Positions 1,868-24,000 of a DNA stretch of 24,000 nt are shown one piece after another. Where the stretch lies: the NCBI GenBank assembly GCA_020161755.1, contig JAIUOS010000001.1, forward strand, positions 186,633-210,632. The letters run 5' to 3'. How positions within the stretch are numbered: the stretch's first letter is position 1; every line of letters starts with the position of its first letter. The notes under the pieces were generated by a model. The model saw nothing but the letters and a program-made list of their open reading frames with translations, made no database searches and was not told the origin of the DNA. The DNA comes from Actinomycetota bacterium (GTDB lineage Bacteria; Actinomycetota; Actinomycetes; Propionibacteriales; Propionibacteriaceae). A program made the position numbers and the translations under genes.

Positions 1868-1872
1868 CCCAC

Positions 1873-2697: not shown

Positions 2698-2721
2698 GGG
2701 CGGCGGCCGTGACTGGGGGCG

Positions 2722-5782: not shown

Positions 5783-5809
5783 GGAAGACCTCCTCATTGA
5801 GTTCTCAAT

Positions 5810-5838
5810 ACTGTATTCAGAATACGGGGCGGCGTACA
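5810..5838 (-). promoter_or_regulatory. Putative promoter plus GntR-type operator (site 1) of the 5782..2722 importer operon
   Basis: Palindrome TGTATTCAGAATACG at 5812..5826, 30 nt upstream of the ATG at 5782. On the minus strand: TGTACG (5838..5833), 17 nt, TACAGT (5815..5810). The operator overlaps the spacer and the -10. Confidence 0.5.
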
Positions 5839-5875
5839 GGGGCGGCGGTCAGGTTCTTCGCCGGCCTGCTCTCCT

Positions 5876-5947
5876 GTCCGCTTCCCTCCCCCGTCCGCTT
5901 CCCTCCCCCCGTCCGCCTCCCTCCCCCGTCCGCTTCCCCCGGCCCCC
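5876..5947. repeat. Tandem repeat, about 4 copies of 17-18-bp unit GTCCGCTTCCCTCCCCC (C-rich on +, G-rich on -)
   Basis: Units read directly at 5876..5892, 5893..5910 and 5911..5927, with a degenerate copy at 5928..5947. Non-coding region between the importer promoter and the hairpin repeat. Confidence 0.8.
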
Positions 5948-5951
5948 GTGC

Positions 5952-6028
5952 AAACGCCCCCGAAGTTGACAAACGCCCCCGAAATTTCGGGGGCGTTTGT
6001 GAGTTTCGGGGGCGTTTGCGGGGGACGG
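5952..6028. repeat. 77-bp direct repeat, left copy. Two-tier hairpin built from 4 copies of CAAACGCCCCCGAA (2 direct, 2 inverted). Probable terminator downstream of the 6113..7039 gene.
   Basis: 74/77 identical to 7176..7252. Outer arms 5951..5964 and 6005..6018, inner perfect 15-bp arms 5970..5984 and 5985..5999. Lies 85 nt past the stop at 6113. Confidence 0.85.
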
Positions 6029-6043
6029 GTGACGGGCGGACGG

Positions 6044-6099
6044 GCGTGCCGGGCTGGGCCGGACGGACGACGAGCGTGCCGGACCGGGCCGGACGGACG
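6044..6099. repeat. Imperfect tandem repeat, 2 copies of GCGTGCCGGRCYGGGCCGGACGGACG (30-bp period), G-rich on +
   Basis: Copies at 6044..6069 and 6074..6099, 24/26 identical. Embedded in GGACGG-rich sequence from 6019 to 6112. Confidence 0.7.
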
Positions 6100-6112
6100 G
6101 GCGTCCGCGGGC

Positions 6113-7039: not shown

Positions 7040-7091
7040 GACCCCAGCCGACAGCTCCGCGCGAGGCCTGCGCAAGGGCTCGGACCAGACG

Positions 7092-7163
7092 GACAACACC
7101 TGCGGGCAAATTGACAACACCCTGTGAGTCGCCGGACAACACCTGGCCCCGCCGGACAACACC
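7092..7163. repeat. Four phased direct repeats (iterons) with core GACAACACC, upstream of the 7039 start
   Basis: Cores at 7092..7100, 7113..7121, 7135..7143 and 7155..7163, spaced 21, 22 and 20 bp. The last two copies share 14 nt, CGCCGGACAACACC (7130..7143 and 7150..7163). Confidence 0.8.
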
Positions 7164-7175
7164 GCCACCCCGCAG

Positions 7176-7252
7176 AAACGCCCCCGAAGTTGACAAACGC
7201 CCCCGAGATTTCAGGGGCGTTTGTCAGTTTCGGGGGCGTTTGCGGGGGACGG
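7176..7252. repeat. 77-bp direct repeat, right copy (hairpin slightly degenerate). Probable terminator downstream of the GntR gene.
   Basis: 74/77 identical to 5952..6028. The 3 differences (7207, 7213, 7225) weaken the inner stem and change the internal loop. Lies 30 nt past the GntR stop at 7282. Confidence 0.85.
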
Positions 7253-7281
7253 ACGGCTGCGGCCAGCAGGGCCGGAAGGAG

Positions 7282-7938
7282 TCAGGCGGTCAGGTAGGTG
7301 CTGCTGGCCTGCATCAGGATGCGCTTGGCGCCGTTCACCCAGTTGGCCTGGAGGGCGTCCTTGGCGCCGGGGATGTCGCCGTCCTCGAGGCAGCGGGCGA
7401 TTGCGGCGTGCTCGGCGGCCACGCGTCCCATCACGGCCTCGTTCGGCACCAGCAGCGACTCGTACCGGTGGAACGACTGCCGGACGGTCGCGATCAGCGA
7501 CAGCAGCCTCTGGTTCGGGCACGCGCTCAGCATCACGCCGTGCCACTCGTCGTCGCGGGTCATGATCATCGAGTGGGCGGCCACCTCGCTGTCGAACTCG
7601 GCGGCCAGTTTGGCCAGTCGCGCGGCGAGCTTCTGCATCTTCGCCGGCGGGCTGAGCTCGATCGCCAGCCCCTCCAGGGCCGAGATCACGGGTGCCAGCT
7701 CCTCGAACTCGCGCGCGCTGAGGGCGGCGAACCGGAACCCCTTGCCGCTCTCGCTCTCGATCTGGCCCTCGGTCTCCAGCGCGATCAGCGCCTCGCGCAG
7801 CGGCGTCCGGCTCACGCCGATCTCGGCGGCCAGCTGCACCTCGTTGATGCCCTCTCCCGGCGTCACCGCCCCGGTGCGCATGCGGGTGAGGAGTTCGTCG
7901 CGGACCTGCTCACGCAACGCTCGGCGCTCGATTGCCAT
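7282..7938 (-). CDS. GntR-family transcriptional regulator (FadR/FCD subfamily)
   Basis: Lies within track ORF 7282..8283. ATG at 7938 (MAIERRALREQVRDELL...) is preceded by AGGAGGAG. wHTH INEVQLAAEIGVSRTPLREALIALETEG, followed by an all-helical C-terminal domain of FCD size (218 aa in total). Confidence 0.85.
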   Translation of the reverse strand: MAIERRALREQVRDELLTRMRTGAVTPGEGINEVQLAAEIGVSRTPLREALIALETEGQIESESGKGFRFAALSAREFEELAPVISALEGLAIELSPPAKMQKLAARLAKLAAEFDSEVAAHSMIMTRDDEWHGVMLSACPNQRLLSLIATVRQSFHRYESLLVPNEAVMGRVAAEHAAIARCLEDGDIPGAKDALQANWVNGAKRILMQASSTYLTA

Positions 7939-8010
7939 GGACTCCTCCTGCGGGGTTGGTCGGCAGCATACGGCCTGAGGTGCCCCGTCCGGCCGGTGGG
8001 GGCCGGAGGC

Positions 8011-8040
8011 TTGCGGTTTTGTATTCAGTATTCCTAGTGT
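8011..8040 (+). promoter_or_regulatory. Putative promoter plus GntR-type operator (site 2) in the divergent GntR/ebgA-like intergenic region
   Basis: TGTATTCAGTATTCC at 8020..8034. Candidate -35 TTGCGG at 8011..8016, 18 nt spacer, -10 TAGTGT at 8035..8040. The site is 48 nt before the ATG at 8082 and 82 nt from the GntR ATG. Confidence 0.45.
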
Positions 8041-8072
8041 GGCGGGTGGACGTTGAGCGTGCAACACAGTAG

Positions 8073-11542
<3,470 letters not shown>

Positions 11543-11582
11543 CGGGCTCGGTAACGATTCGGTAAGGGCAGCCTCACAACCA

Positions 11583-11614
11583 TTGACGTCCCAGAACACT
11601 GTATGCAGAATACA
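11583..11614 (+). promoter_or_regulatory. Putative promoter plus GntR-type operator (site 3) of the second importer/GH63 operon
   Basis: -35 TTGACG at 11583..11588, 17 nt spacer, -10 CAGAAT at 11606..11611. Near-perfect palindrome TGTATGCAGAATACA at 11600..11614 overlaps the -10. It lies 37 nt before the ATG at 11651. Confidence 0.5.
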
Positions 11615-11650
11615 AACGTCGAGCGACGTCCGAGCAGAGAGGCTTTCCAC

Positions 11651-12979
11651 ATGTCGATGCGCTCAAGAACCCACAAACTCCTGGCCGGCCTGGCCGCCGC
11701 AGCGCTGGCTCTCGGCCTGGCCGCGTGCAGCGGTGGCGGGGGCACCGCGTCCGCGCCGTCGACCGGCGGCAGCGCGGCGGGCACCCCGTCCGGCACCGTG
11801 GTCTGGTCCACCTGGGGCACGCCCGAGGAGCTCACCCGCTTCAAGGACTTCAACACCCAGTTCATGAAGAAGTACCCGACGATCAAGGTCACCCTGAACC
11901 CGGTCGCCTCGTACTCCGACTACCACTCCAAGCTGCTCGCCCAGCTCACCAGCAACACCGCGCCGGACGTGTTCTACATCGGCGACGACAAGCTCGGCCA
12001 GTTCGTGAGCGCGAACGTGCTGCTGCCCCTGAACGACCGCATGGCCGCTCCGGGCAGCAAGATCACCAAGGACGCCTTCTTCGACGGCCTGTTCGGTGCT
12101 GCCCAGACCGACGGCCAGACCTACGCCGCTCCCAACGACGTGAACCCGGACCTGTTCTGGTATGACAAGAAGGCGCTCGCGGCCGCCGGCATCACCGAGG
12201 ACCCCGCGACCCTGGCCGCCAGCGACCAGTGGACGACCGCCAAGTTCCTGGAGATGAACGACAAGCTGAAGGCCGCCGGCCTCACCGGCTCGATGTACTG
12301 GAACTACTGGGCCACCCACTACAGCTGGATCTCCGCCCAGGGCGGCAAGGCCTACGACGGCAACACCTTCGTCGGCAACACCGATCCCAAGACGGTCGCC
12401 GCGGTCACCACGCTCGGCCAGTACTTCCAGAACAAGACGTTCGTCGTCGCCGACACGCTCCCCGAGGGCGCCGGGGCCGACAGCATCTTCGTCCGGCACA
12501 AGGCCGGCTTCTTCGTCCAGGGCCGCTACACCATCGGCACCCTGAAGTCCGCGGGCGTGCAGGCCGACTACGACGTCGTCCGCTGGCCGACCGCTGACGG
12601 CAAGGCCGCCCCGACCGGTGTCGCCGCGTCCTACCTGGCGATCAACAAGAACACGAAGAACGCCGACGCCGCCTTCCTGTTCTGGAGCGAGTTCCTGAAC
12701 GCGGACGGCCAGAAGTTCCGTCTCGCCGGCGGCGGCAACGCCGTCCCGTCGGTGAAGGGTGCCGACGAGGTCGTCCTCGAGGACAACTACCCGGCCAACG
12801 CCCAGGGGATCCTCGACGCCCGCAACATCGGCTTCGTGAACTACCCGGCCGAGGCCAAGGTGCCGGCGCTGTCCTCCGACATCAGCGACCTGTTCCTGAA
12901 GCTGTACGAGGGCAAGGCGGACGCACAGGGCACGCTCGACGCGGTCGCCGCCCTGGCCAAGGAGAAGATCGGATCGTGA
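11651..12979 (+). CDS. ABC transporter sugar-binding lipoprotein
   Basis: Track ORF 11603..12979. The ATG at 11603 lies inside the operator, so I prefer the ATG at 11651 (MSMRSRTHKLLAGLAAAALALGLAAC...), which has a signal peptide and the lipobox LAAC. Family-1 SBP-like. Confidence 0.85.
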   Translation: MSMRSRTHKLLAGLAAAALALGLAACSGGGGTASAPSTGGSAAGTPSGTVVWSTWGTPEELTRFKDFNTQFMKKYPTIKVTLNPVASYSDYHSKLLAQLTSNTAPDVFYIGDDKLGQFVSANVLLPLNDRMAAPGSKITKDAFFDGLFGAAQTDGQTYAAPNDVNPDLFWYDKKALAAAGITEDPATLAASDQWTTAKFLEMNDKLKAAGLTGSMYWNYWATHYSWISAQGGKAYDGNTFVGNTDPKTVAAVTTLGQYFQNKTFVVADTLPEGAGADSIFVRHKAGFFVQGRYTIGTLKSAGVQADYDVVRWPTADGKAAPTGVAASYLAINKNTKNADAAFLFWSEFLNADGQKFRLAGGGNAVPSVKGADEVVLEDNYPANAQGILDARNIGFVNYPAEAKVPALSSDISDLFLKLYEGKADAQGTLDAVAALAKEKIGS

Positions 12980-13905
12980 CGACCACCCGTCCCGCGCCGG
13001 CCGTGCCCGCCGTCCGCCGCACCGCGGCGTGGCGGCGGCGCGACCGGCGCTGGGGCTGGGTGTTCGTCGGACCCCAGCTGATCGGCATGGTGCTGTTCAT
13101 CCTGGGTCCGTTCGTGGCCAGCCTCGTGCTGGCCTTCGCCTCCTGGGACGGGCTCACCGCCCTGAAGTGGGTGGGGCTGGCCAACTTCGTCGACCAGCTC
13201 ACCGACGAACTGCTGCTGAAGTCCATCGTCAACACCCTGCTGATCGCCCTGATCACCGTGCCGGTCGGCCTGGCGCTGGCCCTGCTGATCGCCGTCGCCC
13301 TGGAGAAGCTGCGGACGCGGTCGCTCTACCTCGTCCTGTTCTTCGCCCCGGTGGTGACCAGCACGGTGGCGGTCGCGATGATCTGGCAGCAGCTGTTCCG
13401 CGCCGACGGCGTGCTCAGCGGCTTCATCGCCAGCACCTTCCACATCGACCCGCCCGACTGGCTGGGCGACCCGCACCTTGCGCTGATCTCGGTCTGCATC
13501 GTCACGATCTGGAGCTCGGTCGGCCTCAACGCGGTGATCTTCCTCGCCGGCCTCCAGGGCATCTCGCCGTCCCTGATCGAGGCCGCGCAGCTGGACGGTG
13601 CCGGCGCCTGGTCACTGCTCACCCGGATCCGGATGCCGCTGATCTCGCCGATCATCTTCTTCTCCACGATCGTGGCGTTCATCTCCTCGCTGCAGACGTT
13701 CGACACGGTGTTCGTCCTCACCGCGGACGCCGGTCCCGACAACGCCACCCGCACGATCGTCTACCACATCTACGACCTGGGCTTCGGCCGCTTCGAGTTC
13801 GGCCCGTCCAGCGCCGCGTCGGTGATCCTGCTGGTGCTCACGCTGGTGATCACCGGCCTCCAGTTCGCCGCGCAGAAGCGCTTCGTCCACTACGAGAGCG
13901 ACTGA
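12976..13905 (+). CDS. ABC sugar transporter permease (MalF-type)
   Basis: GTG at 12976 overlaps the SBP stop (GTGA). EAA motif IEAAQLDGAGAWSLLTRIRMP. Multiple TM segments. Confidence 0.85.
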   Translation: MTTTRPAPAVPAVRRTAAWRRRDRRWGWVFVGPQLIGMVLFILGPFVASLVLAFASWDGLTALKWVGLANFVDQLTDELLLKSIVNTLLIALITVPVGLALALLIAVALEKLRTRSLYLVLFFAPVVTSTVAVAMIWQQLFRADGVLSGFIASTFHIDPPDWLGDPHLALISVCIVTIWSSVGLNAVIFLAGLQGISPSLIEAAQLDGAGAWSLLTRIRMPLISPIIFFSTIVAFISSLQTFDTVFVLTADAGPDNATRTIVYHIYDLGFGRFEFGPSSAASVILLVLTLVITGLQFAAQKRFVHYESD

Positions 13906-13907
13906 GC

Positions 13908-14792
13908 ATGGCTGCCACCGACACCATCGCCCCGGCGACCCTCGGCGACCGCCAGGCTCGCACCGGACGCACCCTGCGCAAGGTCGGCCTGCACGTCGTG
14001 CTGCTCGGGGCCGGCCTGGCCATGGTCTTCCCGTTCGTGTGGATGCTGCTGACCTCGTTCAAGACCCTGCCGCAGCTGTTGGAAGACCCGCTGAGCTTCC
14101 TGCCGAACCCGTGGACGATCGCCAACTACGTGCAGGCGTGGACGTCGGTGCCGTTCGGCCAGGCGTATCTCAACAGCGCCTACATCTGCCTCCTGTCGGT
14201 CGCCGGCACCCTGGTCACCGCGTCGATGGCCGGCTACGCGTTCGCGCGCATCGAGTTCAAGGGCGCCAAGGCGCTGTTCATCGTCTTCCTGGCCACCCAG
14301 ATGATCCCCAAGCAGGTCACGCTGATCCCGTTCTACCTGCTGATGAGCAAGTTCGGCTGGGTCGACTCCCACCTGTCCCTGATCGTCCCGGCGATGCTGG
14401 TGAACCCGTTCGCGGTGTTCCTGATGCGCCAGTTCGTGCTCACCCTGCCCAAAGAGCTGGAGGAGGCCGCCCGCGTGGACGGCTGCGGGCGCTGGCGCAT
14501 GTTCTGGCGGATCGTGCTGCCCAACCTGCGTCCCGGGCTCGCGGCGCTGGCGATCATCGTCGCGCTGGACGTCTGGAACAACTTCCTGTTCCCGCTGGTG
14601 CTGCTGAACACGCCCGACCTGTTCACCGTCCCGTTGCTGCTGACCAGCTTCCGCGGCCAGTTCGGCACCATCAACTACGGCCTGGTGATGGCGGCGTCCG
14701 CGATCGCGACCGTGCCGATGCTGGTCGCGTTCGTGATCGGGCAGCGCAAGATCATCGCCTCGCTCGCGTCCTCGGGGTTGGGCGGACGGTGA
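13908..14792 (+). CDS. ABC sugar transporter permease (MalG-type)
   Basis: Lies within track ORF 13029..14792. ATG at 13908 (MAATDTIAPATLGDRQ...) is 3 nt after the previous stop. EAA motif EEAARVDGCGRWRMFWRIVLP. Confidence 0.85.
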   Translation: MAATDTIAPATLGDRQARTGRTLRKVGLHVVLLGAGLAMVFPFVWMLLTSFKTLPQLLEDPLSFLPNPWTIANYVQAWTSVPFGQAYLNSAYICLLSVAGTLVTASMAGYAFARIEFKGAKALFIVFLATQMIPKQVTLIPFYLLMSKFGWVDSHLSLIVPAMLVNPFAVFLMRQFVLTLPKELEEAARVDGCGRWRMFWRIVLPNLRPGLAALAIIVALDVWNNFLFPLVLLNTPDLFTVPLLLTSFRGQFGTINYGLVMAASAIATVPMLVAFVIGQRKIIASLASSGLGGR

Positions 14793-16438
14793 CCCGGGCC
14801 GCCGCGCTGGCCGACGCCGCGGCCGCGTTCCTCGACCTCCGGACGCTGCCGTTCACGCTGCCCGGTTCCCGGCTGCTGGTCCGGGAGACCGACGGCGGGC
14901 TGTCGGTCAGCCGCGCCGAGTACGAGGTGGACGCCGACGACGCCCTCGCCGTGCGCCGGCTGCGGCTGTACGGCGCGGACGGGGAGGCCCTCGCGGTCAG
15001 TCGGGTCCGGGTCGACCGGATCGAGTTCGGCGACGGCTCGGCGTCCCTGACCTTCGGCGCCCCCGACGAGCTCAGCATCGGCGGCGCGGCCCGGTGCACG
15101 TTCGAGTTGCCCGACGGCAGCACGATCGGTGACAGCGGTCCGGGCGTTGCCCCGGACGCCGGTGCCCCGGAGGTCGGCGTCCTGGTGAGCGTGGACGCCG
15201 ACCGCCGGGTGCGCGTCCGCCGCGACGCCGGGCACGCCGCGCGGCTCGCCCGCACCGAGCAGGTCTGGCTGGACTGGTTCGCGCGCTGCCCGGTGGTCAG
15301 CGCCGACCTGGAGGCGACCGCCGCGCACTGCTGGTGGGTGCTCGGTGCCAACCAGGTCGAGCTCGACCTCGCGCCCGGCACGCGGGCGGTGGTGCCGTCG
15401 AAGCTCGGCTACGTCGCCCTGTGGCAGTGGGACGCCTACTTCATCGCGATCGGCCTGCGGCACGGCGACCTCGACCTGGCGATGCAGCAGCTCGACCTGG
15501 CCCTCACCCACCAGCGCCCGGACGGGCAACTGCCCGACGTCGTCCACGACACGGGGGTGCTCGCCGGCAGCGACGACCTGCCGCCGGTCGACCAGGCGCG
15601 GCTGCGCGAGCTGGGCTCGCCGGCCGCCGACCCCGGCGTCCCGGTCCCGCTGACCAAGCCCCCGCTGACCGCGCTCGCGGTCACCCGGCTGATCGACGCC
15701 GGCGCACCGGCCGAATGGGTGCACCGGGTGCTGCCGGCGTTGCGCGCGTCCCAGCAGTGGTGGTTCGACCACGCTCTGGCCCCCGACGGACTGCCCGAGT
15801 ACGCGCACCCGTACTCCTCCGGACTGGACGACAGCCCGGTGTTCGACGCCGACCTGCCGGTCGCCACCCCCGACCTGGCCGCCTACCTCGTGCTCCAGGA
15901 CGTGCTGCTGGCCGACCTCTCCGACCCCGAACAGGCCGCCCGGCACCGCGGGCGGGCGGCCGACACCCGGGAGTTGCTGCACCGGCTCTGGCAACCGTCC
16001 GCGCACCGCTTCGCCCCGCGCGGTCGCCGCGGGCCGGTCGCCGCGCACACCGTCGTCGACCTGCTGCCGCTGCTCACCGGCACCCTGCCGCGCGACGTGG
16101 CCGCGTCCCTCGCCGACGACCTCGCCGACCCGGCCACCTTCGCCGCGGCGTTCCCCGTCCCCACGGTCGCGCTCGACGACCCCGCCTTCGACGCCGGACG
16201 GATGTGGCGCGGCCCGGTCTGGGTGAACACCAACTGGCTGCTCATCGAGGGACTGGAACGCAGCGGGTTCGGCGCGGCCGCGGCCGCGCTCGCCGCGCGG
16301 ACGCTGGCCCTGGTCGGCGCCGGCGCGTGCGAGTACTACAACCCGCTGACCGGGGCACCCCCGCCGCGGTCGGCGCCCATGTTCAGCTGGACGGCAGCCC
16401 TGTTCATCGACCTCGCCGTCCGCTACGCCCGCCCTTGA
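14789..16438 (+). CDS. (alpha/alpha)6-barrel glycoside hydrolase, GH63/MGH1-like (trehalase/glucosidase-like), with an uncharacterised N-terminal domain of about 190 aa
   Basis: Lies within track ORF 14039..16438. GTG at 14789 overlaps the permease stop (GTGA). Motifs typical of GH63/GH37-clan enzymes: ALWQWDAYFIAIGL, YSSGLDDSPVF, GPVWVNTNWLLIEGL, EYYNPLTG, FSWTAALF. Confidence 0.7.
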   Translation: MTRAAALADAAAAFLDLRTLPFTLPGSRLLVRETDGGLSVSRAEYEVDADDALAVRRLRLYGADGEALAVSRVRVDRIEFGDGSASLTFGAPDELSIGGAARCTFELPDGSTIGDSGPGVAPDAGAPEVGVLVSVDADRRVRVRRDAGHAARLARTEQVWLDWFARCPVVSADLEATAAHCWWVLGANQVELDLAPGTRAVVPSKLGYVALWQWDAYFIAIGLRHGDLDLAMQQLDLALTHQRPDGQLPDVVHDTGVLAGSDDLPPVDQARLRELGSPAADPGVPVPLTKPPLTALAVTRLIDAGAPAEWVHRVLPALRASQQWWFDHALAPDGLPEYAHPYSSGLDDSPVFDADLPVATPDLAAYLVLQDVLLADLSDPEQAARHRGRAADTRELLHRLWQPSAHRFAPRGRRGPVAAHTVVDLLPLLTGTLPRDVAASLADDLADPATFAAAFPVPTVALDDPAFDAGRMWRGPVWVNTNWLLIEGLERSGFGAAAAALAARTLALVGAGACEYYNPLTGAPPPRSAPMFSWTAALFIDLAVRYARP

Positions 16439-16470
16439 CCGGCACCCGACGTCGCCGGATACTGAATACA
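16435..16470 (+). promoter_or_regulatory. Putative internal promoter plus GntR-type operator (site 4) upstream of the P-protein-like operon
   Basis: -35 TTGACC at 16435..16440 contains the GH63-like TGA stop. 17 nt spacer, then -10 GATACT at 16458..16463. CGGATACTGAATACA at 16456..16470 is the reverse complement of TGTATTCAGTATCCG. It lies 30 nt before the ATG at 16500. Confidence 0.5.
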
Positions 16471-16499
16471 ACATACAAAGTGCAGCCAGGAGGATGCCG

Positions 16500-17867
16500 A
16501 TGAGCGCGCCGTACGTCCACCCCTACGTACCGAACACCGCGCCCGAGGCGAGGGCGGCGATGCTGGCCGCCGTCGGCGCCGCATCGGTCGAGGACTTCTA
16601 CGTCGACATCCCGGACGCGCTGCGCCTGCACCGGCCGCTCGACCTGCCGCCGGCCCTGGTCGCCGAGCAGGACCTGGTGCGCCACGTCAGCGGCCTGCTC
16701 GACCGCAACCGGCCGGTGGCGCCGGGCCGCAGCTTCCTCGGCTCCGGCACCTACCACCACCACGTCCCCGCCGTCGTCGACGAGGTGATCGGACGCAGCG
16801 AGTTCCTCACCGCCTACGCCGGCGAGCCGTACGAGGACCACGGACGCTTCCAGGCGCTGTTCGAGTACGAGTCGCTGATGGCCGAACTGCTGGCGATGGA
16901 CGTGGTCACGGTCCCGACCTACGACAGCTTCCAGGCGGCCTCCACCGCCCTGGCGATGGCCGGCCGGATCACCGGCCGCCGCACGGTCCTGGTCGTCTCC
17001 GACGTGCTGGCCGACCGCCGCTCGCGCGTGCACGACTTCGTCCGCAGCCACCTCGACCTGGTCGACGTGCCGACCCGCGACGGGGTGGCCGACCTGACCG
17101 CGGTGCAGGCCGCCCTCGACGGCGGCGTCGCCGCGATCTGGGTGGAGACGCCCAGCCGCACCGGCGCGGTCGAGACCGCGCTGGCCGCCCTCGCCGAGGC
17201 CGCCCACGCGGTGGGCGCCGTGGTCGTCGTCAGCACCGACCCGATCTGCTACGGGGTGCTCACCCCGCCGTCCGAGCAGGGCGCCGACATCGTCTGCGGC
17301 GACCTCCAGTCGCTGGGCCTGCACGCCCACTACGGCGGTGCGCACGGCGGGTTCCTCGCCGTCCACGACGACCCGCGCTTCGTGATGGAACTGCCGTCGC
17401 GGCTGTTCGGGCTGGCGACCACCGACGTCCCCGGCGAGTACGGGTTCGGCGACGTCGCCTACGAACGCACCTCGTTTGCGGTGCGCGAGGAGGGCAAGGA
17501 GTGGGTCGGCACGGCCGCCGCCCTGTGGGGCATCGCCGCCGGTGTCTACCTCGCGCTCCACGGGCCCCGGGGCATGGCCGAGCTCGGCGAGACGATCCTC
17601 GCGCGCACCCGGTACGCCCAGCAGCGGCTGGCCGCGCTCCCGGGCGTCGTGGCCGGCGACGACGCGGTCCACTTCCGCGAGTTCACCGTCGCGCTGCCCG
17701 TCGACCCGGCGGACGTCGTCCGACGCCTCGCCACGCAGGGGTTCGCCGCCGGCGTCCCCCTCGACGACCACCGCCTGCTGGTCTGCGTGACCGAGGTCAA
17801 CACCGCCGACGACATCGACGCGCTGGTCGCCGCCGTCGCCGACGCCCTCACCGAGGAGCACCGATGA
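16500..17867 (+). CDS. gcvPA: Glycine-cleavage P-protein subunit 1 (GcvPA)-like protein, divergent paralogue
   Basis: Track ORF 16494..17867. GGAGGA ends at 16493, so I prefer the ATG at 16500. N-terminal pattern HPYVPNT...MLAAVGAASVEDFYVDIPDALRL..LDLPPAL, FLGSGTYHHHVPAVVDEV and FEYESLMAELLAMDV match the GcvPA layout. Where canonical GcvPA has TPYQPE(I/V)SQG, this protein has AGEPYEDHGR. Confidence 0.75.
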   Translation: MSAPYVHPYVPNTAPEARAAMLAAVGAASVEDFYVDIPDALRLHRPLDLPPALVAEQDLVRHVSGLLDRNRPVAPGRSFLGSGTYHHHVPAVVDEVIGRSEFLTAYAGEPYEDHGRFQALFEYESLMAELLAMDVVTVPTYDSFQAASTALAMAGRITGRRTVLVVSDVLADRRSRVHDFVRSHLDLVDVPTRDGVADLTAVQAALDGGVAAIWVETPSRTGAVETALAALAEAAHAVGAVVVVSTDPICYGVLTPPSEQGADIVCGDLQSLGLHAHYGGAHGGFLAVHDDPRFVMELPSRLFGLATTDVPGEYGFGDVAYERTSFAVREEGKEWVGTAAALWGIAAGVYLALHGPRGMAELGETILARTRYAQQRLAALPGVVAGDDAVHFREFTVALPVDPADVVRRLATQGFAAGVPLDDHRLLVCVTEVNTADDIDALVAAVADALTEEHR

Positions 17868-19435
17868 GCCTTCCCGTCGCCGCCAAGCCGGCGCTGCGTC
17901 GCTTCCACCAGGCCCGCTGGGACGAGCCGGTGATCTTCGAGCTGACCGCCGCCGGCGAGCGCGGCGTCGTCCCCAGCCAGGTGGAGCCGGGCGTCCGCGA
18001 CAGCGTCGGCGACGTGCTCGCCGGGCTCCCGGACGGCCTGCGCCGCACCGCCCCGCCGGCCCTCCCCGAACTCGGCCAGCTGCGGGTGCTCAAGCACTAC
18101 CTGCGCCTGTCGCAGGAGAACCTCGGCGCCGACCTGAACGTCGACGTCGGCCAGGGCACCTGCACGATGAAGTACTCCCCGAAGGTCAACGACCGGCTGG
18201 CCGCGCACGCGTCCCTGCTCGACCTGCACCCGCTGCAGGACCCGGCCGACGCGCAGGGCATCCTCGAGATCATCTGGCGCACCCAGCGCATGCTCGCCGA
18301 GATCTCGGGCATGGACGAGGTGGGCCTGCACACCCAGGGCGGATCGGCGGCGATCTGGACGAACATCGCGATGATCCGCGCCTGGTTCGAGGCGCGCGGC
18401 GAGGCCGAGCAGCGCACCGAGGTGATCACCACGATCTTCAGCCACCCGTCGAACGCCGCCACCGCGAAGGCCGCCGGGTACGACGTGATCACGATCTACC
18501 CCGACGCGGACGGGTACCCCGACATCGAGGCGTTCAGGCGGGCCCTGTCGCCGCGCACCGCGGCGATCATGGTGACCAACCCCGAGGACACCGGCATCTA
18601 CAACCCGCGGATCGCCGAGTGGGTGGAGCTCGCGCACAGCGTGGGTGCGCTGGCGTCCTACGACCAGGCCAACGCGAACGGCATCCTGGGCATCACCCGG
18701 GCCCGCGACGCCGGCTTCGACGTGTGCCACTTCAACCTGCACAAGACCTTCGGGACGCCGCACGGCTCGGGCGGCCCGGGGGCCGGGGCGAACGGGGTGG
18801 CTGCCCACCTGGCGCCGTTCCTGCCGCGTCCGCTGGTGGTCCGGGACGAGGACGGCACCTTCCGGCTGGACGACGACCGCCCGCTCTCGATCGGAAAGGT
18901 GGCCCCGTTCTACGGGGTGGTGCCGAACATCGTCCGCGCGTACGCGTGGATCCGGGCGCTGGGGGCCGAAGGGCTGCGGGCGGTCGCCGAGACCGCCGTG
19001 CTGAACAACAACTACCTGATGGCGAGGGTGCTGGCGATCCCGGGGGCGTCCGCGCCGTACGCGACCGGCCGGCGGCGGATCGAGCAGGTGCGCTACTCCT
19101 GGCAGGACCTGTTCACCGACACCGGCATCACGTCGGAGGAGCTCGGCGTCCGCGCGTCCGACTACGGCATGCACTACTGGACGAGCCACCACCCCTACGT
19201 GGTGCCGCAGCCGTTCACGCTCGAGCCGACCGAGTCGTACTCGATGGCCGAACTGGACGAGTACGCGGACGTGCTGGCCCAGGTGGCGCGCGAGGCCCGC
19301 GAGACCCCGGACGTGGTGCGTACCGCGCCGCACAACCAGACCGTCCACCACACCCACCACGACGACCTCGACGACCCCGCGCGCTGGGCCACCAGCTGGC
19401 GGGCCTACCAGCGCAAGTACGGCTCGGGGACGTGA
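17864..19435 (+). CDS. gcvPB: Glycine-cleavage P-protein subunit 2 (GcvPB)-like PLP-dependent protein
   Basis: ATG at 17864 overlaps the previous stop (ATGA). GTCTMKYSPKVN, the PLP-lysine motif FNLHKTFGTPHGSGGPGAG, and FLPRP match the GcvPB layout. Confidence 0.8.
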   Translation: MSLPVAAKPALRRFHQARWDEPVIFELTAAGERGVVPSQVEPGVRDSVGDVLAGLPDGLRRTAPPALPELGQLRVLKHYLRLSQENLGADLNVDVGQGTCTMKYSPKVNDRLAAHASLLDLHPLQDPADAQGILEIIWRTQRMLAEISGMDEVGLHTQGGSAAIWTNIAMIRAWFEARGEAEQRTEVITTIFSHPSNAATAKAAGYDVITIYPDADGYPDIEAFRRALSPRTAAIMVTNPEDTGIYNPRIAEWVELAHSVGALASYDQANANGILGITRARDAGFDVCHFNLHKTFGTPHGSGGPGAGANGVAAHLAPFLPRPLVVRDEDGTFRLDDDRPLSIGKVAPFYGVVPNIVRAYAWIRALGAEGLRAVAETAVLNNNYLMARVLAIPGASAPYATGRRRIEQVRYSWQDLFTDTGITSEELGVRASDYGMHYWTSHHPYVVPQPFTLEPTESYSMAELDEYADVLAQVAREARETPDVVRTAPHNQTVHHTHHDDLDDPARWATSWRAYQRKYGSGT

Positions 19436-20673
19436 CCGATGCCAACCGTCATCCCGACGCCCACCGGGATCCCCGGTTCAACGTGGCGGCGACGACGGGT
19501 TCCCGGCACAGGCCCGGGATGGCGGGGGGAGAAGGAGGTCCCGGCGAAAGCCGGGATCTCCGACTCGGGCTGGTGGTGAACCCGGTCGCCGGCCTCGGTG
19601 GCCCGGCTGGGCTGAAGGGCAGTGACGGCGCCGACACCCAGGAGCTGGCCCGCGTCCGGGGGGCCGAGCCGCACGCGGGCGAGCGGGCGATCCGGTCGCT
19701 GCGCGTCCTGGCCGCCGCCGTCCCGGACGCCGTGGTGCTGACCGCGGGCGGGCCGATGGGGGCGGACGCGGTGACCGCGGCCGGGCTGCGGCCCGAGGTG
19801 GTCTGGACGCCCGACTCGCCCACCACCGACGGCGCCGACACCACCGACGCCACGGCCGCCCTGGTCACCGCCGGCGCCGGCCTGGTGCTGTTCGTCGGCG
19901 GGGACGGCACCGCGCGCGACGTGGTCGCCGGGAACACCGCGGACGGGCTCGTGCTCGGCGTCCCGGCGGGGGTCAAGATGTACTCCTCGTGCTTCGCGGT
20001 CAGCCCCGAGGCCGCCGGTGCGGTCGCCGTCCGCTGGCTGGCCGAGGGCGTGCCGACCCGTGAAGCCGAGGTCCTCGACATCGACGAGGAGGCACTGCGC
20101 ACCGGCCGCACCGAGCCGCGGCTGCACGCACTGGTCCGGGTCCCGACCTGGGCGTCCCGCACCCAGGCCCGCAAGGCGCCCACCCCGGAGTCCGAGGCCG
20201 CCGCCGTGTTCGCGGCCGCCGCCGGGCTGCAGGCCGGCCTCGAGCCGGGGGTGCGCTACCTGCTGGGGCCGGGCGGCACGGTGGCCGAGCTCGGTCGTCA
20301 GCTCGGCCTCGACGTCTCCCTGCTGGGCGTGGACGTGGTGCTCGACGGCGCGCTGCTGGCCAGGGACGCGTCCGAGGCCGAACTGTTCGTTCACGCCACC
20401 GCCGGCCCCGCTCGCGCGGTGGTCACGGTGATCGGCGGCCAGGGCTTCCTGCTCGGCCGGGGCAACCAGCAACTGTCGCCGCGGGTACTGCGCGCGCTGG
20501 CGTCCGAGCCCCTGTTGGTCGTGGCCACGCAGCGCAAGCTGCTCGACCTGGGCGGGCGTCCCCTGCTGGTCGACACCGGCGACCCCGCGCTGGACGCCGC
20601 GCTGGCCGGCCACGTCCGCGTGGTCACCGGGCCGGGCAGCGTCGCGGTGTACCCGATCGCTTCACCACAATGA
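19432..20673 (+). CDS. ATP-NAD kinase family (NAD kinase/DAG kinase fold, AcoX-like) protein
   Basis: GTG at 19432 overlaps the previous stop (GTGA). The ATG at 19519 (MAGGEGGPGESRDLRLGLVVNPVAGLGG...) is an alternative start. Motifs LGLVVNPVAGLGG and FVGGDGTARDV (GGDGT) are typical of the PF01513-type fold. Confidence 0.7.
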   Translation: MTDANRHPDAHRDPRFNVAATTGSRHRPGMAGGEGGPGESRDLRLGLVVNPVAGLGGPAGLKGSDGADTQELARVRGAEPHAGERAIRSLRVLAAAVPDAVVLTAGGPMGADAVTAAGLRPEVVWTPDSPTTDGADTTDATAALVTAGAGLVLFVGGDGTARDVVAGNTADGLVLGVPAGVKMYSSCFAVSPEAAGAVAVRWLAEGVPTREAEVLDIDEEALRTGRTEPRLHALVRVPTWASRTQARKAPTPESEAAAVFAAAAGLQAGLEPGVRYLLGPGGTVAELGRQLGLDVSLLGVDVVLDGALLARDASEAELFVHATAGPARAVVTVIGGQGFLLGRGNQQLSPRVLRALASEPLLVVATQRKLLDLGGRPLLVDTGDPALDAALAGHVRVVTGPGSVAVYPIASPQ

Positions 20674-20696
20674 GTTCGAACACGAAGGAGCAGCAG

Positions 20697-21455
20697 ATGA
20701 GGCTGGCAGGCAAGGCGGCGATCGTCACCGGCGGTGGCGGCGGGATCGGGCGGGCGACCGCGCTGGCGATGGCCGCGGAGGGCGCGAAGGTGGCCGTCGT
20801 CGACATCGACGCGGACGCGGCGACGCGCGTCGCCGACGAGATCACGGCGGCCGGCGGGACGGCGATCGCCGCGCCCGCGGACGTGTCCAGCGAGGCCGAC
20901 ATCAAGGCCGTGGTGGCCGCCGCGGTCGAGGCCTTCGGCACGGTCGACGTGGTGTTCAACAACGCGGGCATCATCCGCCGCACCACCGTGGAGGACATCT
21001 CGGTGGACGAGTGGGACCGGGTGTTCGCGGTCAACGTCCGCTCGATCTACCTGATGTGCCGCGAGGTGGTACCGATCATGGCCGCGCACGGCGGCGGCTC
21101 GATCATCAACACCGGGTCGGGCTGGGGGCTGAAGGGCGGCGGCCGGGCGGTCTCGTACTGCGCGTCCAAGGGCGCCGTGGTGAACCTCACCCGCGCGCTG
21201 GCGATCGACCACGGCCCGCAGGGCATCCGGGTGAACTCGGTGAACCCCGGCGACGTGAACACCGACATGCTCCGCAACGAGGCCAGCCAGCTGCACCAGG
21301 ACGCGCAGAGCTTCCTCGCCGAGGCCGCCGACCGTCCGCTCGGTCGGATGGGTGAGCCGTCGGAGATCGCCGCGGCGGTCGTCTGGCTCGCCAGCGATGA
21401 CGCCAGCTACGTCACCGGCTCCGCGCTCAGCGTGGACGGCGGCGGCAACGCCTGA
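20697..21455 (+). CDS. Short-chain dehydrogenase/reductase (classical SDR)
   Basis: Track ORF 20670..21455 (ATGA overlap at 20670). I prefer the ATG at 20697 (MRLAGKAAIVTGGGGGIG...) because GAAGGAG lies at 20684..20690. Motifs TGGGGGIG, NNAG and YCASK. Confidence 0.85.
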   Translation: MRLAGKAAIVTGGGGGIGRATALAMAAEGAKVAVVDIDADAATRVADEITAAGGTAIAAPADVSSEADIKAVVAAAVEAFGTVDVVFNNAGIIRRTTVEDISVDEWDRVFAVNVRSIYLMCREVVPIMAAHGGGSIINTGSGWGLKGGGRAVSYCASKGAVVNLTRALAIDHGPQGIRVNSVNPGDVNTDMLRNEASQLHQDAQSFLAEAADRPLGRMGEPSEIAAAVVWLASDDASYVTGSALSVDGGGNA

Positions 21456-21512: not shown

Positions 21513-22526
21513 CTACGTGGCGTCCGGTGGCGCGGTCTCGCCCGAGCCGCGCGGGACGTAGTGGACGCCGATGACGGCGGTCTCGGGCACCCCGGTCGGG
21601 TCCTCGAGTCGCTGGAAGGCGAGCTCGACCGCGCGGCGGCCGAGTTCGGCGGGGTCGTGGGCGATGACCGAGATGCCGAAGGCGTCCGCCATCTCGAAGT
21701 CGTCGAACCCGATCAGGGCCAGCTCGAGCCCGCGTCGGCGCAACTGGCGCACCGCGGCCACCGTCGCCCGGTTGTTGCCGCCCACGATCGCCGTGGGCGG
21801 GTCGTCGGAGTCGAGCAGTTCGGCCACGAGGTCGTCCAGCGACCGCTCGGGGTCATCCGAGGTGCGCTCCCAGCGGGCGGTGTCCTCGACGCCGGCCTCG
21901 GCGAGCGCCTGCCGGTACCCCTTCAGGCGCTCCTGGGTGGTGTGAATGGCCGCCGGGTTCGCCACGAACCCGATGCGCCGGTGGCCGTGGGCGACCAGGG
22001 CGGACGCGGCCTGGTAGCCCCCGTCGGCGTCGGCGAGCAGCACCGTGTCGGCGAGCAGGTTCTGGATCGGACGGTCGACGGCCACGATCACGGTGCCGAG
22101 GTGGCGCTCGCCGTCCAGGTAGGAGTAGTCGCCGCCCAGCGGCACCAGCAGGATCGCCTGGACGCGCTGCGCAACCAGCGTCTCGATGACGTCGCGCTCC
22201 CGGTCGGTGCTGTCGGTGGCCGAGGCGAGGATCATCGTGTACCCGCGTCGTGAGCACTCCTGCTCGATGCCGGCGGCGACCTGGATGTAGAACGGGTTGG
22301 TGAACTCGGCGGTCACGAAACCGATCGTCCGGGTGACGCCGCCGAGCCGCAGGTCCCGGGCCAGCACGTTCGGGGTGAAGCGGAGCCGTTCGGCCGCCTC
22401 GCGCACCCGCGTCCGGGTGTCGTCGCTCACCAGTTCGGGCGAGGAGTAGACGCGCGAGACCGTCTTGGCGCTCACGCCGGCGAGCTTGGCGACATCCGCC
22501 AGCGTCGCCCGGACCAGTGCAGCCAT
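21513..22526 (-). CDS. LacI-family transcriptional regulator
   Basis: Track ORF 21513..22568. ATG at 22526 (MAALVRATLADVAKLAGVSAKTVSRVYS...) is preceded by AGGAGGAGGA. N-terminal HTH followed by a periplasmic-binding-protein-like sugar-binding core. Confidence 0.9.
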   Translation of the reverse strand: MAALVRATLADVAKLAGVSAKTVSRVYSSPELVSDDTRTRVREAAERLRFTPNVLARDLRLGGVTRTIGFVTAEFTNPFYIQVAAGIEQECSRRGYTMILASATDSTDRERDVIETLVAQRVQAILLVPLGGDYSYLDGERHLGTVIVAVDRPIQNLLADTVLLADADGGYQAASALVAHGHRRIGFVANPAAIHTTQERLKGYRQALAEAGVEDTARWERTSDDPERSLDDLVAELLDSDDPPTAIVGGNNRATVAAVRQLRRRGLELALIGFDDFEMADAFGISVIAHDPAELGRRAVELAFQRLEDPTGVPETAVIGVHYVPRGSGETAPPDAT

Positions 22527-22664
22527 CGTCGTCCTCCTCCTGTCCGCGGGCCAGCCTAGCAGGGTCATGACATCGAAGGACAGTCATGCGCCGGGCCGCA
22601 TCCTTGAACGAATTTTGCCATCTATCTTACCTAGTCAGAAAGCTGAAATCGACTTCCTGTGAAC

Positions 22665-22714
22665 TAAAGCGCTTAATGTCAGCGTTGACATTGGATCGGA
22701 CACGGAGCTACCTT
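22665..22714 (+). promoter_or_regulatory. Two LacI-type operator palindromes plus the putative promoter of the downstream SBP gene
   Basis: AATGTCAGCGTTGACATT at 22675..22692 has 7-bp perfect arms and a central CG. TAAAGCGCTTAA at 22665..22676 has the core AAGCGCTT. -35 TTGACA at 22685..22690 lies inside the operator arm, followed by an 18 nt spacer and TACCTT at 22709..22714. Confidence 0.5.
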
Positions 22715-22788
22715 TGCCGCGTCGTGACCCGAGCCCGCAGAGCCTGCCGGCCGGACCAAACAACCCAACTTCGAAGGAGAAGCAGTCG

Positions 22789-24000
22789 ATGGCCAAGAAG
22801 CTCATCGCAGGCGTGGCGGGGCTCCTCGTCCCGCTCCTCGCGCTCACCGGGTGCGGTGCCACCGCGACCCCGAGCAGCGAGCCCAGCACCGCCGAGCAGG
22901 TCTCGGGCACGGTCAAGGTGCTGACCAACCGCACCGACCTGGTGCAGGACGGCACGTTCGACAAGTACGCCGCCGAGTTCAAGAAGCTGTACCCCGACGT
23001 GACCGTGTCGTTCGAGGGCATCACCGACTACGCGGGTCAGGTCGCGATCCGGCTCAACACCAAGGACTACGGCGACGTGCTGGCGATCCCCAGCAGCGTG
23101 AAGGAGTCGCAGCTGTCGACCTTCTTCGAGCCGCTGGGCGCGCAGGCCGACCTGGAGAAGACGTTCCGGTTCACCGCCGAGCACGCCGCGGACGGCCAGG
23201 TCTACGGCCTCGCGACCGGTGGCAACGCCAACGGCGTCGTCTACAACAAGAAGGTCTTCGCCGCGGCCGGCATCACCACGCTGCCGAAGACCCCGGAGGA
23301 GTTCCTCACCGACCTGCAGCTGATCAAGGACAAGACGGACGCGATCCCGCTGTACACCAACTACAAGGACGGCTGGCCGCTGTCGCAGTGGTTCGGCAAC
23401 CTGGGCAGCGCCTCGGGCAGCGCGGACGCGAACACGCTCCTGTCCGACGATGACGCCCCGTGGACGCAGGGCAAGGACATGTACGCCATCGACTCCCTGC
23501 TGTTCGACGCGGTCAACAAGAAGCTGACCGAGGACGACCCGCTCACCACCAACTGGGAGAAGTCGAAGAACCTGATCGGCACCGGCAAGGTCGCCACCAT
23601 GGTCCTCGGCTCCTGGGCGATCTCGCAGATGCAGGCCGCCGCCAAGACCGCCGGCGGCAGCGCCGACGACATCGGCTACATGGCCTTCCCGGTGACCGCG
23701 GCCGACGGCAAGCAGTACGCGGTCGACGGTGGCGACTACGCCTTCGCGGTGAACGTCAACTCCTCGGTGAAGCCGGCGGCGAAGGCCTTCGTCAATTGGT
23801 TCGTGACCAAGTCCGGCTACGCGGCCGACCAGGGCATGATCTCGGCCGACCGGAGCGTCGCACTGCCGTCCAACCTCAAGGACCTGACCGACAACAACGT
23901 CGAGCTCCTCGAACTGGCCCAGAACCCGACCCGCGACGAGCTCATCAACGAGTCGCAGATCGACCTGACCGGCAACACCTACCGGCAGAAGCTGGTCGAC
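22789..24000 (+). CDS. ABC transporter substrate-binding lipoprotein (carbohydrate), 3'-truncated by window edge
   Basis: Absent from the ORF track because it has no stop within the window. ATG at 22789 is preceded by GAAGGAGA (22773..22780). My translation is MAKKLIAGVAGLLVPLLALTGCGATATPSSEPSTAEQVSGTVKVLTNRTDLVQDGTFDKYAAEFKKLYPDVTVSFEG..., open to nt 24000. It has a lipobox LTGC and strong GC3 codon bias. Confidence 0.8.
   Translation, partial: MAKKLIAGVAGLLVPLLALTGCGATATPSSEPSTAEQVSGTVKVLTNRTDLVQDGTFDKYAAEFKKLYPDVTVSFEGITDYAGQVAIRLNTKDYGDVLAIPSSVKESQLSTFFEPLGAQADLEKTFRFTAEHAADGQVYGLATGGNANGVVYNKKVFAAAGITTLPKTPEEFLTDLQLIKDKTDAIPLYTNYKDGWPLSQWFGNLGSASGSADANTLLSDDDAPWTQGKDMYAIDSLLFDAVNKKLTEDDPLTTNWEKSKNLIGTGKVATMVLGSWAISQMQAAAKTAGGSADDIGYMAFPVTAADGKQYAVDGGDYAFAVNVNSSVKPAAKAFVNWFVTKSGYAADQGMISADRSVALPSNLKDLTDNNVELLELAQNPTRDELINESQIDLTGNTYRQKLVD

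Follow-up and report, generated by a model that had tools for sequence, protein, structure and literature searches.

A conserved P-protein-like gene pair linked to a kinase-fold protein and a short-chain dehydrogenase in an actinobacterial glycoside locus

The glycine cleavage system (GCS) has a P-protein that exists in Thermus thermophilus as a heterotetramer of GcvPA and GcvPB (PDB 1WYT), and this enzyme is the best solved relative of a pair of proteins encoded in the DNA studied here. The whole stretch that was analysed, referred to as the window, comprises 24,000 nucleotides of ~70% G+C from a bacterium of the Propionibacteriaceae (assembly GCA_020161755.1, contig JAIUOS010000001.1, positions 186,633 to 210,632) and was mapped by Pfam, NCBIfam and open reading frame (ORF) analysis. 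It contains a chain of four genes encoding the alpha and beta subunits of a non-canonical P-protein-like enzyme dependent on pyridoxal phosphate (PLP), here called PA' and PB', a protein of NAD-kinase/diacylglycerol (DAG)-kinase fold, and a classical short-chain dehydrogenase/reductase (SDR) (Table 1). PA' and PB' share with the T. thermophilus enzyme the fold, the two-subunit architecture, the NLHKTF lysine motif, the stacking His and the Asp; they align with it over their full length (E = 1e-63 for alpha, 1.8e-94 for beta), with 37% identity over trimmed columns between PA' and the T. thermophilus alpha subunit. Unlike the heterotetrameric GcvPA/GcvPB enzymes, they belong to a clade of their own, with an altered alpha-subunit motif, altered beta-subunit signatures and a C-terminal extension, and their genes are linked not to gcvT, gcvH or lpd but to the kinase-fold gene, the SDR gene, a GntR/FCD regulator gene and importer genes.

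Other parts of the locus also have described counterparts. We take the kinase-fold protein to be of the COG3199 type (AcoX-type 'ATP-NAD kinase family'), a COG assignment that is our own and was returned by no tool. Proteins of this type in acetoin operons have the same NAD_kinase N- and C-terminal domains and GGDGT motif, and likewise stand beside an alpha/beta enzyme, but their partner is a thiamine pyrophosphate-dependent E1, whereas here it is a P-protein-like PLP enzyme. The function of the family has, to our knowledge, been open for decades. A kinase followed by a PLP enzyme is also the logic of mammalian 5-hydroxylysine degradation, in which hydroxylysine kinase, of the aminoglycoside-phosphotransferase fold, acts before the PLP-dependent 5-phosphohydroxylysine phospho-lyase, an enzyme of the class-III aminotransferase type. 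The likeness, in the handling of a hydroxy-amino acid, is one of analogy only; the proteins of the window fall into the NAD_kinase and GDC-P families and are not homologous to the mammalian enzymes as we know them. Among the glycosidases, the large subunit of glycoside hydrolase family 2 (GH2) with its YhcH/EbgC-like small protein resembles E. coli ebgAC, but in most relatives of the locus the pair is replaced by a GH42 enzyme. The GH63-like hydrolase has the MGH1-like/GH63 (alpha/alpha)6 catalytic domain of YgjK and of the Thermus and mycobacterial glycosyl-glycerate hydrolases, but is only distantly similar to these characterized enzymes.

The reading that we favour, by a modest balance of probability, is that the four genes form the centre of a catabolic regulon under GntR/FCD control, and that its substrate is a polar amino acid, probably hydroxylated, which arrives here as a Glc/Gal glycoside. 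The parts come from known superfamilies; their combination has not been described, nor have the altered P-protein pocket and the regulon. A literature search that also took in AcoX, GcvP paralogues, bacterial hydroxylysine kinase and phospho-lyase, and the use of galactosyl-hydroxylysine by bacteria returned no paper on the PA'/PB' clade or on COG3199.

A first-pass annotation of the window, made from the letters alone, had reported that PA' lacks a segment typical of canonical GcvPA, and alignment bore this out. PA' has AYAGEPYEDHGRFQ where canonical GcvPA has AYTPYQ[PA]E.SQG, and the replacement is one residue shorter (YAGEPYEDHGR as against YTPYQPE.SQG). In the orthologue alignment AYAGEPYEDHGRFQ is unchanged across more than 70 loci, and FLTAYAGEPYEDHGRFQ is essentially invariant in the orthologues of the genome loci, though overall identity drops to 59%. 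When PA' relatives were sought among 1.8 billion cluster representatives, the closest full-length ones (39–56% identity) were all without the canonical motif and carried variants of AY.G..Y.D.G[KR].Q; of the other 104 full-length representatives, which lie outside the PA' clade, ~100 retain TPYQ[PA]E or something close to it. By sequence position, the replaced Tyr residues of YTPYQPE would be Y161 and Y164 of human GLDC, which are classed as active-site residues (PMC7259800). The Asp-His-Gly-Arg/Lys that PA' has acquired could bind a phosphate or a second charged group.

The suspicion that the subunits fall outside the canonical GcvPA/GcvPB clade was likewise confirmed. A neighbour-joining tree was built from 42 non-canonical PA' sequences, that of the window included, and 41 canonical GcvPA sequences; PA' was separate in 200/200 bootstraps. 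In this set the PA' of the window is ~33% identical to canonical GcvPA and 44–51% identical to non-actinobacterial PA'. In Leifsonia xyli subsp. cynodontis (locus L005, 7011-8386, equal to L042) PA' is split into ORFs of 125 aa and 332 aa, apparently by a frameshift, beside an intact PB', kinase-like gene and SDR. The split may represent decay of the module in a plant-restricted pathogen, and fits an accessory gene.

PB' has signatures of its own, as judged against the Thermus, human, E. coli-type and Synechocystis enzymes: GSCTMK has become GTCTMKY, SAHGTNPA has become TTIFSHPSNAA and DGANMNA has become DQANANG, and TNPEDTGI is a further clade-specific signature. A conserved C-terminal extension reads APHNQT.HH..LDDP.RW..TWRAY.RK and suggests that the entrance has been reshaped and differs from the canonical H-protein channel. 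The NLHKTF and PHGSGGPG motifs noted initially are present and align with canonical NLHKTF..PHGGGGPG, and the PLP lysine, the stacking His and the Asp are retained. Since the PLP-binding residues are kept, the PA'/PB' enzyme is probably active, and to judge from these alignments its pocket probably differs from that of a canonical P-protein.

The kinase-like protein matches PF01513 (1.3e-16) and PF20143 (7e-16), and its GGDGT motif is invariant in an alignment of 15 homologues. It matched no NCBIfam family at E <= 0.01 and no PDB sequence at E <= 0.5. A Foldseek search with the predicted model gave weak matches to DAG kinases of the DgkB/YegS type and to the sphingosine kinase SphK1 (TM 0.2-0.35). 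Thus the domains and GGDG of an NAD kinase (NadK/PpnK) are present, but the protein is not recognizable as NadK by curated models or by solved relatives, and its constant linkage to PA'/PB' argues for a role other than phosphorylation of NAD(H). From its fold and motif it is likely to be a phosphotransferase. Sequences 100% identical to it occur on short public contigs, and the closest long contigs are metagenome-assembled genomes (MAGs) of Propionicimonas. The SDR carries the Rossmann motif TGGGGGIG and YCASK, and matches adh_short (1.2e-59) and adh_short_C2 (4.2e-66).

The gene association is widely conserved. A scan of a genome collection with the kinase-like protein gave 80 loci, from Propionibacteriaceae, Microbacteriaceae, Georgenia, Arthrobacter, Phytoactinopolyspora, Acidimicrobiia and Streptosporangiaceae, in which neighbours were counted by tblastn with the window proteins. 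Complete genomes with the locus include those of Leifsonia poae P4 (CP192580), Microbacterium sp. PMB16 (CP145908), Arthrobacter sp. 21a14 (CP192487) and Streptosporangium sp. CA-135522 (CP192026). In 72 of the 74 loci with room for them, PA' and PB' immediately precede the kinase-like gene, and in 77/79 an orthologous SDR follows it directly. For the remaining genes, counts were restricted to the 63 loci with full 10-kb flanks: a beta-galactosidase was found in 61 (57 GH42, 4 GH2), CUT1 permeases in 58, a GntR/FCD orthologue in 57 and, within 10 kb, a GH63-like gene in 51. The non-orthologous replacement of GH2/EbgC by GH42 indicates that beta-galactosidase activity itself is what is selected. 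The four-gene association, its glycosidase and ATP-binding cassette (ABC) importer context and the operator described below are thus kept in ~70 relatives from several actinobacterial orders, in agreement with the linkage first proposed from the window alone. The gene context of the Acidimicrobiia locus (L049) was uninformative. ORFs in the related loci came from our own caller, which is imperfect, and some clusters were antisense artefacts. The initial statement that gcvT, gcvH and lpd are absent also held, no GCV_T, GCV_H or lipoamide-dehydrogenase domain being present in any large ORF of the window. Across the 80 genome loci and 80 metagenome loci, no family beyond the core locus recurred; aminoadipate-semialdehyde dehydrogenase, aldolase and lipoyl protein were among those sought.

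The four genes follow a promoter-like TTGACC-17-GATACT (16435-16463), which proved to be the sole sigma-70-like match in 5.4 kb, where shuffled sequences give an expectation of 0.1. Its -10 element is overlapped by the palindrome TGTAT-N5-ATACA, the putative operator. The first-pass annotation had held this palindrome to be shared with the sugar operons, and three sites with at most one mismatch were found in the window (5812, 11600, 16463), each in a 5' intergenic region, as against 0.04 in shuffles. In related loci the operator occurs in 68/72, with 87 sites as compared with 2 in shuffled sequence, always in the intergenic region between regulator and operon or before the operon of a substrate-binding protein (SBP), and a GntR/FCD orthologue, where there is one, invariably stands beside it. 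Chance occurrence of the palindrome is ruled out by the excess in the window and by its presence in the relatives. The weaker copy in front of the GH2 gene is the exact reverse complement of 16459-16471. The copy upstream of the minus-strand SBP gene indicates that the second CUT1 importer probably belongs to the same regulon; this importer and its operator had not been mentioned in the earlier description. The locus thus has a regulator with helix-turn-helix and FCD domains and a palindrome repeated before operons and kept in relatives, as a GntR/FCD-regulated catabolic regulon would. The GntR/FCD protein would repress by binding the operators over the -10 regions.

A locus in Arthrobacter sp. 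21a14 (L039) bears on the nature of the substrate. Its module is 67-74% identical to that of the window, and around it are encoded an ABC importer for polar amino acids, a regulator of GntR/FCD type, a further SDR and an arginase-family protein; the locus is devoid of glycosidases. The importer consists of an SBP_bac_3 binding protein, a permease and an ATPase, and the nearest solved relatives of the binding protein bind Gln/Arg and Lys/Arg/Orn. Copies of TGTAT-N5-ATACA precede each of the importer operon, the kinase-like gene and PA'. One regulator and operator thus couple the module either to an importer of free amino acids or to glycoside importers and glycosidases, so that the substrate is most simply read as a polar amino acid that also occurs glycosylated. 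The proposal that the hydrolases of the window release an aglycone bearing an amino group gains partial support here, in that the module, under the same operator, is coupled to an importer of polar amino acids where glycosidases are lacking. The flanks of this locus (2065-17704) hold arginase-family, argininosuccinate-synthase-like and PdxS (SOR/SNZ) genes, which may hint at a guanidino or basic amino-acid substrate.

The PA' clade extends beyond the Actinobacteria to Archaea, Clostridia, Chloroflexi and Deltaproteobacteria, usually with a kinase-like gene and often with SDRs. Six contexts of non-canonical PA' (Alkaliphilus, a Njordarchaeota contig, a deltaproteobacterial MAG and three contigs) all had PB' and the kinase-fold gene. 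The exact motif class EPY[DE]DHGR is frequent in metagenome contigs, both archaeal-type and other, and 80 metagenome loci of this class were mostly arranged PA'-PB'-kinase-like-SDR(-SDR). Among the 33 with at least 2.5 kb past PB', the kinase-like gene was found in ~22-23, an SDR in 27 and at least one of the two in 32. Identities between the window and the archaeal and other lineages are 51-56% for PA', 58-67% for PB', 43-47% for the kinase-like protein and 52-59% for the SDR, which indicates that the four genes travel as a unit. Among the recurrent neighbours of this class are an M20 peptidase just upstream, MttB accompanied by a corrinoid protein, a URO-D-like methyltransferase, class-III and class-I/II aminotransferases, a PALP enzyme, ornithine cyclodeaminase, and regulators of the GntR/FCD and IclR families; Opp-type peptide importers adjoin other PA' motif classes. 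The non-actinobacterial setting is one of amino acids and peptides, not of sugars, and the spread of the module across Bacteria and Archaea in such contexts makes the actinobacterial locus look like an older amino-acid module recruited into a sugar regulon. Of the earlier interpretation, the non-housekeeping clade and the conserved glycosidase/ABC/operator context stand. The module is not exclusive to glycoside loci, as the archaeal, clostridial and Arthrobacter contexts contradict this, nor is the P-protein pair an 'orphan', since it belongs to a large, conserved clade.

Some of these loci have further genes. A non-Pyl MttB-family methyltransferase gene adjoins PA' in L090, L097, L104, L109 and L153, with a B12-binding protein nearby in L109 and L153, and URO-D-like methyltransferase genes occur in L121, L135, L149 and L150. 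Such neighbours suggest that some anaerobes supply the module by demethylating a methylated (quaternary) amine. In L121, L135 and L150 a gene for a 650-aa molybdopterin oxidoreductase separates the SDR pair from the kinase-like (or PB') gene. Loci L087, L089 and L092 and representatives P0123-P0141 have the motif classes CGDTYSDHGK, AGGTYSDHGK, VGAAYADHGKY and others; they keep the kinase-like partner and are without SDRs, and in some of them an Opp-type peptide ABC importer, an M20 peptidase or an MR/MLE enzyme is adjacent. From these varied neighbours, the PA' clade probably has several substrate specificities.

We infer a repressor function, an order of steps, a kinase activity, a reaction type for PA'/PB' and a substrate as follows. 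A carboxylate-bearing inducer would release the GntR/FCD repressor from the operators, and the glycoside would be taken up by one or two CUT1 ABC importers. Its alpha-linked hexose would be removed by the GH63-like hydrolase and galactose by the GH2/EbgC-like beta-galactosidase. The freed aglycone would then pass to the four-gene module, where its hydroxyl would be phosphorylated with ATP by the NAD-kinase-fold protein. PA'/PB', as a P-protein-like alpha2beta2 PLP enzyme, would catalyse elimination or decarboxylation of the amino-phospho intermediate in a rebuilt glycine pocket, in which the second Tyr and QPE are lost and Asp-His-Gly-Arg/Lys gained, and the SDR would oxidize or reduce the resulting or preceding carbonyl/hydroxyl.

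A viable candidate for the substrate, though an unlikely one, is Glc-alpha1,2-Gal-beta-O-hydroxylysine, the only natural glycoside known to us in which alpha-Glc and beta-Gal are combined with an amino acid that requires a catabolic route of its own. In the same speculative vein, and with equal doubt, PA'/PB' with the COG3199 kinase-fold protein and one or two SDRs might constitute an unrecognized pathway of Bacteria and Archaea for 5-hydroxylysine or a related 1-amino-2-hydroxy acid, in which the kinase would activate the hydroxyl and the glycine-decarboxylase scaffold would serve as a PLP phospho-lyase/decarboxylase; Actinobacteria would then be eating the collagen glycosides Gal-Hyl and Glc-alpha1,2-Gal-Hyl.

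Several results weigh against a regulon for a glycosylated amino acid. PA' scores 446.5 bits against a cut-off of 364 for the NCBIfam GcvPA equivalog NF001696, and PB' 552 against 441 for the GcvPB equivalog NF003346, which is why pipelines name them GcvPA and GcvPB; with the PLP-binding residues also kept, activity on glycine is possible. Taken with the T. thermophilus P-protein as best solved relative and the conserved PLP lysine, stacking His and Asp, these scores favour a genuine, divergent P-protein of the GCS, which would use housekeeping H, T and L proteins encoded elsewhere and have the sugar genes as mere neighbours. We consider this extremely unlikely, given the separate clade in every bootstrap, the invariant replacement of the alpha-subunit active-site motif by a shorter one and the changed beta-subunit signatures. 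Moreover, gcvT and gcvH are never adjacent, and no GcvT- or GcvH-like family recurs, in ~170 loci, while the kinase-fold gene and the SDR are almost always adjacent; the GntR operator co-regulates the module with glycoside or amino-acid importers; and PA' is split, apparently by a frameshift, in L. xyli subsp. cynodontis. A housekeeping GCS role was rejected on clade, motif, gene context and co-regulation. Because active site, phylogeny and gene context differ despite the cut-off scores, the annotations 'GcvPA/GcvPB' and 'NAD kinase' are very probably mistaken for a large clade.

The GH63-like hydrolase also speaks against an amino-acid aglycone. It matches the MGH1-like (alpha/alpha)6 domain PF22422 at 7.6e-65 and Glyco_hydro_63 (PF03200) weakly, its nearest solved relatives in the PDB are TTHA0978, a mycobacterial hydrolase and YgjK, and the closest characterized relatives cleave glycosyl-glycerates, giving an aglycone without an amino group. 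These relatives are mannosylglycerate and glucosylglycerate hydrolases (PMC6608630, PMC5381378). The locus could accordingly degrade glycosyl-glycerate compatible solutes, the module interconverting the C3 compounds glycerate, hydroxypyruvate and serine; the SDR would be a glycerate/serine dehydrogenase, the kinase-fold protein a glycerate/serine kinase, and PA'/PB' would act on serine, phosphoserine or aminomalonate semialdehyde. An FCD regulator fits a carboxylate effector of this kind. However, the near-universal beta-galactosidase has no role on known glycosyl-glycerates, a dedicated module spanning two domains of life is unexpected when Ser and glycerate have standard catabolic enzymes, and the GH63-like hydrolase shows weak resemblance to the glycerate hydrolases (E = 2e-31 in two stretches, E ~1e-17). 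This makes glycosyl-glycerate degradation improbable.

The SDR scores 263.7 bits against a cut-off of 215 for the NCBIfam glucose 1-dehydrogenase subfamily, so that sugar oxidation also fits. An amino sugar acid route, of the kind followed by glucosaminate, would use the SDR to oxidize C1 to a 2-amino-aldonate and the kinase-fold protein to phosphorylate it, with PA'/PB' as a PLP ammonia-lyase/dehydratase yielding a 2-keto-3-deoxy sugar acid phosphate. The context rich in glycosidases and sugar ABC importers would suit it; a 2-amino-aldonate is a polar amino acid that could fit the SBP_bac_3 importer of Arthrobacter; the new Arg/Lys of the PA' motif could bind the phosphate; and sugar acids are typical effectors of FCD-type GntR regulators. 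We nevertheless regard this route as quite unlikely, since no natural glycoside is known to us in which a free amino sugar or amino-aldonate carries beta-Gal or alpha-Glc, the loci show no recurrent gene for an aldolase or dehydratase, and the archaeal and other loci have peptide and amino-acid neighbours rather than sugar genes.

As regards the kinase step, the kinase-like gene is missing beside about one-third of the metagenomic loci with the same motif and may not be obligatory; furthermore, the protein is without a close solved relative, and its predicted model is moderately confident (pTM 0.55). A kinase-like gene dispensable in these loci, together with the strong retention of the P-protein scaffold and PLP site, favours a lipoyl-dependent reaction in which PA'/PB' would move an aminomethyl-type or amino-alkyl fragment, taken from a non-glycine substrate, to a lipoyl/dithiol acceptor (the housekeeping H-protein or another), the kinase-fold protein being accessory or regulatory. 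COG3199-type genes accompany another lipoyl-dependent, E1-type enzyme in acetoin operons, where AcoX, encoded beside acetoin dehydrogenase E1, is suspected to be such an accessory or regulatory partner. There are three objections: the phosphotransfer motif GGDGT is invariant; the C-terminal extension of PB' suggests an entrance unlike the canonical H-protein channel; and no lipoyl-protein gene was found in or near any locus, a search with our own version of the GcvH sequence giving no GcvH-like ORF in 2.5 Mb of related loci. The chances of a lipoyl-dependent transfer appear slim.

Under the favoured reading, a catabolic regulon for a polar amino acid, the P-protein scaffold, hitherto regarded as dedicated to glycine, seems to have been put to use on a different substrate, alongside an uncharacterized kinase-fold family of COG3199/AcoX type. 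Reconstructions of glycine cleavage and of the reductive glycine pathway may be affected in Bathyarchaeota, Njordarchaeota, Brockarchaeota, Chloroflexi and Clostridia. If hydroxylysine were the substrate, many genes now called 'GcvPA/GcvPB' in Bathyarchaeota, Asgard archaea, Chloroflexi and Clostridia would not be glycine-cleavage genes, and if it were glycosylated hydroxylysine, the module would provide the first microbial route for a major product of collagen breakdown. The regulon offers a testable handle, in that Agromyces, Leifsonia, Microbacterium, Arthrobacter and Streptosporangium are cultivable, the operator is clear, and two kinds of importer bracket the substrate.

Table 1. Features of the 24,000-nucleotide window, in order of position.
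Feature	Coordinates	Strand	Basis or remark
Sugar ABC operon, partial	1-2697	+	Pfam/NCBIfam/ORF map
Second CUT1-type sugar ABC importer: SBP (4472-5797) and two permeases	2722-5797	-	Pfam SBP_bac_1, BPD_transp_1
Operator copy TGTATTCAGAATACG, one mismatch	5812-5826	.	Immediately upstream of minus-strand SBP gene
351-aa ORF between second importer and GntR gene	6113-7168	-	
GntR/FCD-family regulator, presumed repressor on operator	7282-7938	-	Pfam GntR, FCD
Weaker operator-like copy TTGTATTCAGTAT	8019-8031	.	GntR/GH2 divergent intergenic region, before GH2 gene
GH2 beta-galactosidase (EbgA/LacZ-like)	8076-11126	+	Pfam Glyco_hydro_2_N, Glyco_hydro_2, Glyco_hydro_2_C, LacZ_4, Bgal_small_N
EbgC-like small protein (YhcH/YjgK/YiaL, DUF386)	11120-11542	+	Pfam PF04074, E = 3e-8; start overlaps GH2 stop
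Promoter-like TTGACG-17-CAGAAT (11583-11611)	11583-11614	+	-10 overlapped by perfect operator TGTATGCAGAATACA (11600-11614)
CUT1 sugar ABC importer: SBP and permeases (12976-13905, 13902-14792)	11651-14792	+	Pfam SBP_bac_1, BPD_transp_1
GH63-like (MGH1-like) glycoside hydrolase, presumed alpha-glucosidase/alpha-mannosidase type	14789-16438	+	Pfam MGH1-like_GH
Promoter-like TTGACC-17-GATACT with operator copies	16435-16478	+	ATACTGAATACAA (16459-16471); TGAATACAACATACA (16463-16477)
PA', alpha subunit of non-canonical P-protein-like PLP enzyme	16494-17867	+	Pfam GDC-P; motif AYAGEPYEDHGRFQ
PB', beta subunit with PLP lysine (NLHKTF)	17864-19435	+	Pfam GDC-P family, clade-specific signatures
NAD-kinase/DAG-kinase-fold protein with GGDGT	19432-20673	+	Pfam NAD_kinase, NAD_kinase_C
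Classical SDR oxidoreductase	20670-21455	+	Pfam adh_short, adh_short_C2
LacI-type regulator	21513-22568	-	
Further CUT1 SBP gene	22663 onward	+	

The start/stop overlaps described earlier for the four-gene chain are all present (ATGA at 17864, GTGA at 19432, ATGA at 20670). For PA', ATG 16500 is a likelier start than 16494 because it is well spaced from an AGGAGG ribosome-binding site, and the SDR may start at 20670 or 20697. The GTGA overlap between PB' and the kinase-like gene may be unreal: in the ORF from GTG 19432 the first ~40 residues are missing from homologues and are disordered in the model (pLDDT <50). The true start may be ATG 19519, which would abolish the overlap.

In the importer operon downstream of the EbgC-like gene, the SBP more likely starts at ATG 11651 than at ATG 11603, because the ORF from 11603 opens inside the operator; from ATG 11651 the protein reads MSMRSRTHK..., which is lipoprotein-like. 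Its top solved relative in a PDB search binds arabino-oligosaccharides, and PDB searches with this SBP and with the SDR did not narrow the substrate. The LacI-family regulator and divergent CUT1 SBP gene at the end of the window (21513-24000) apparently form a separate sugar locus without the TGTAT-N5-ATACA operator. The 351-aa ORF matches nothing in Pfam and lacks a counterpart in the related loci; its G+C at third codon positions (GC3) of 0.91 is coding-like.

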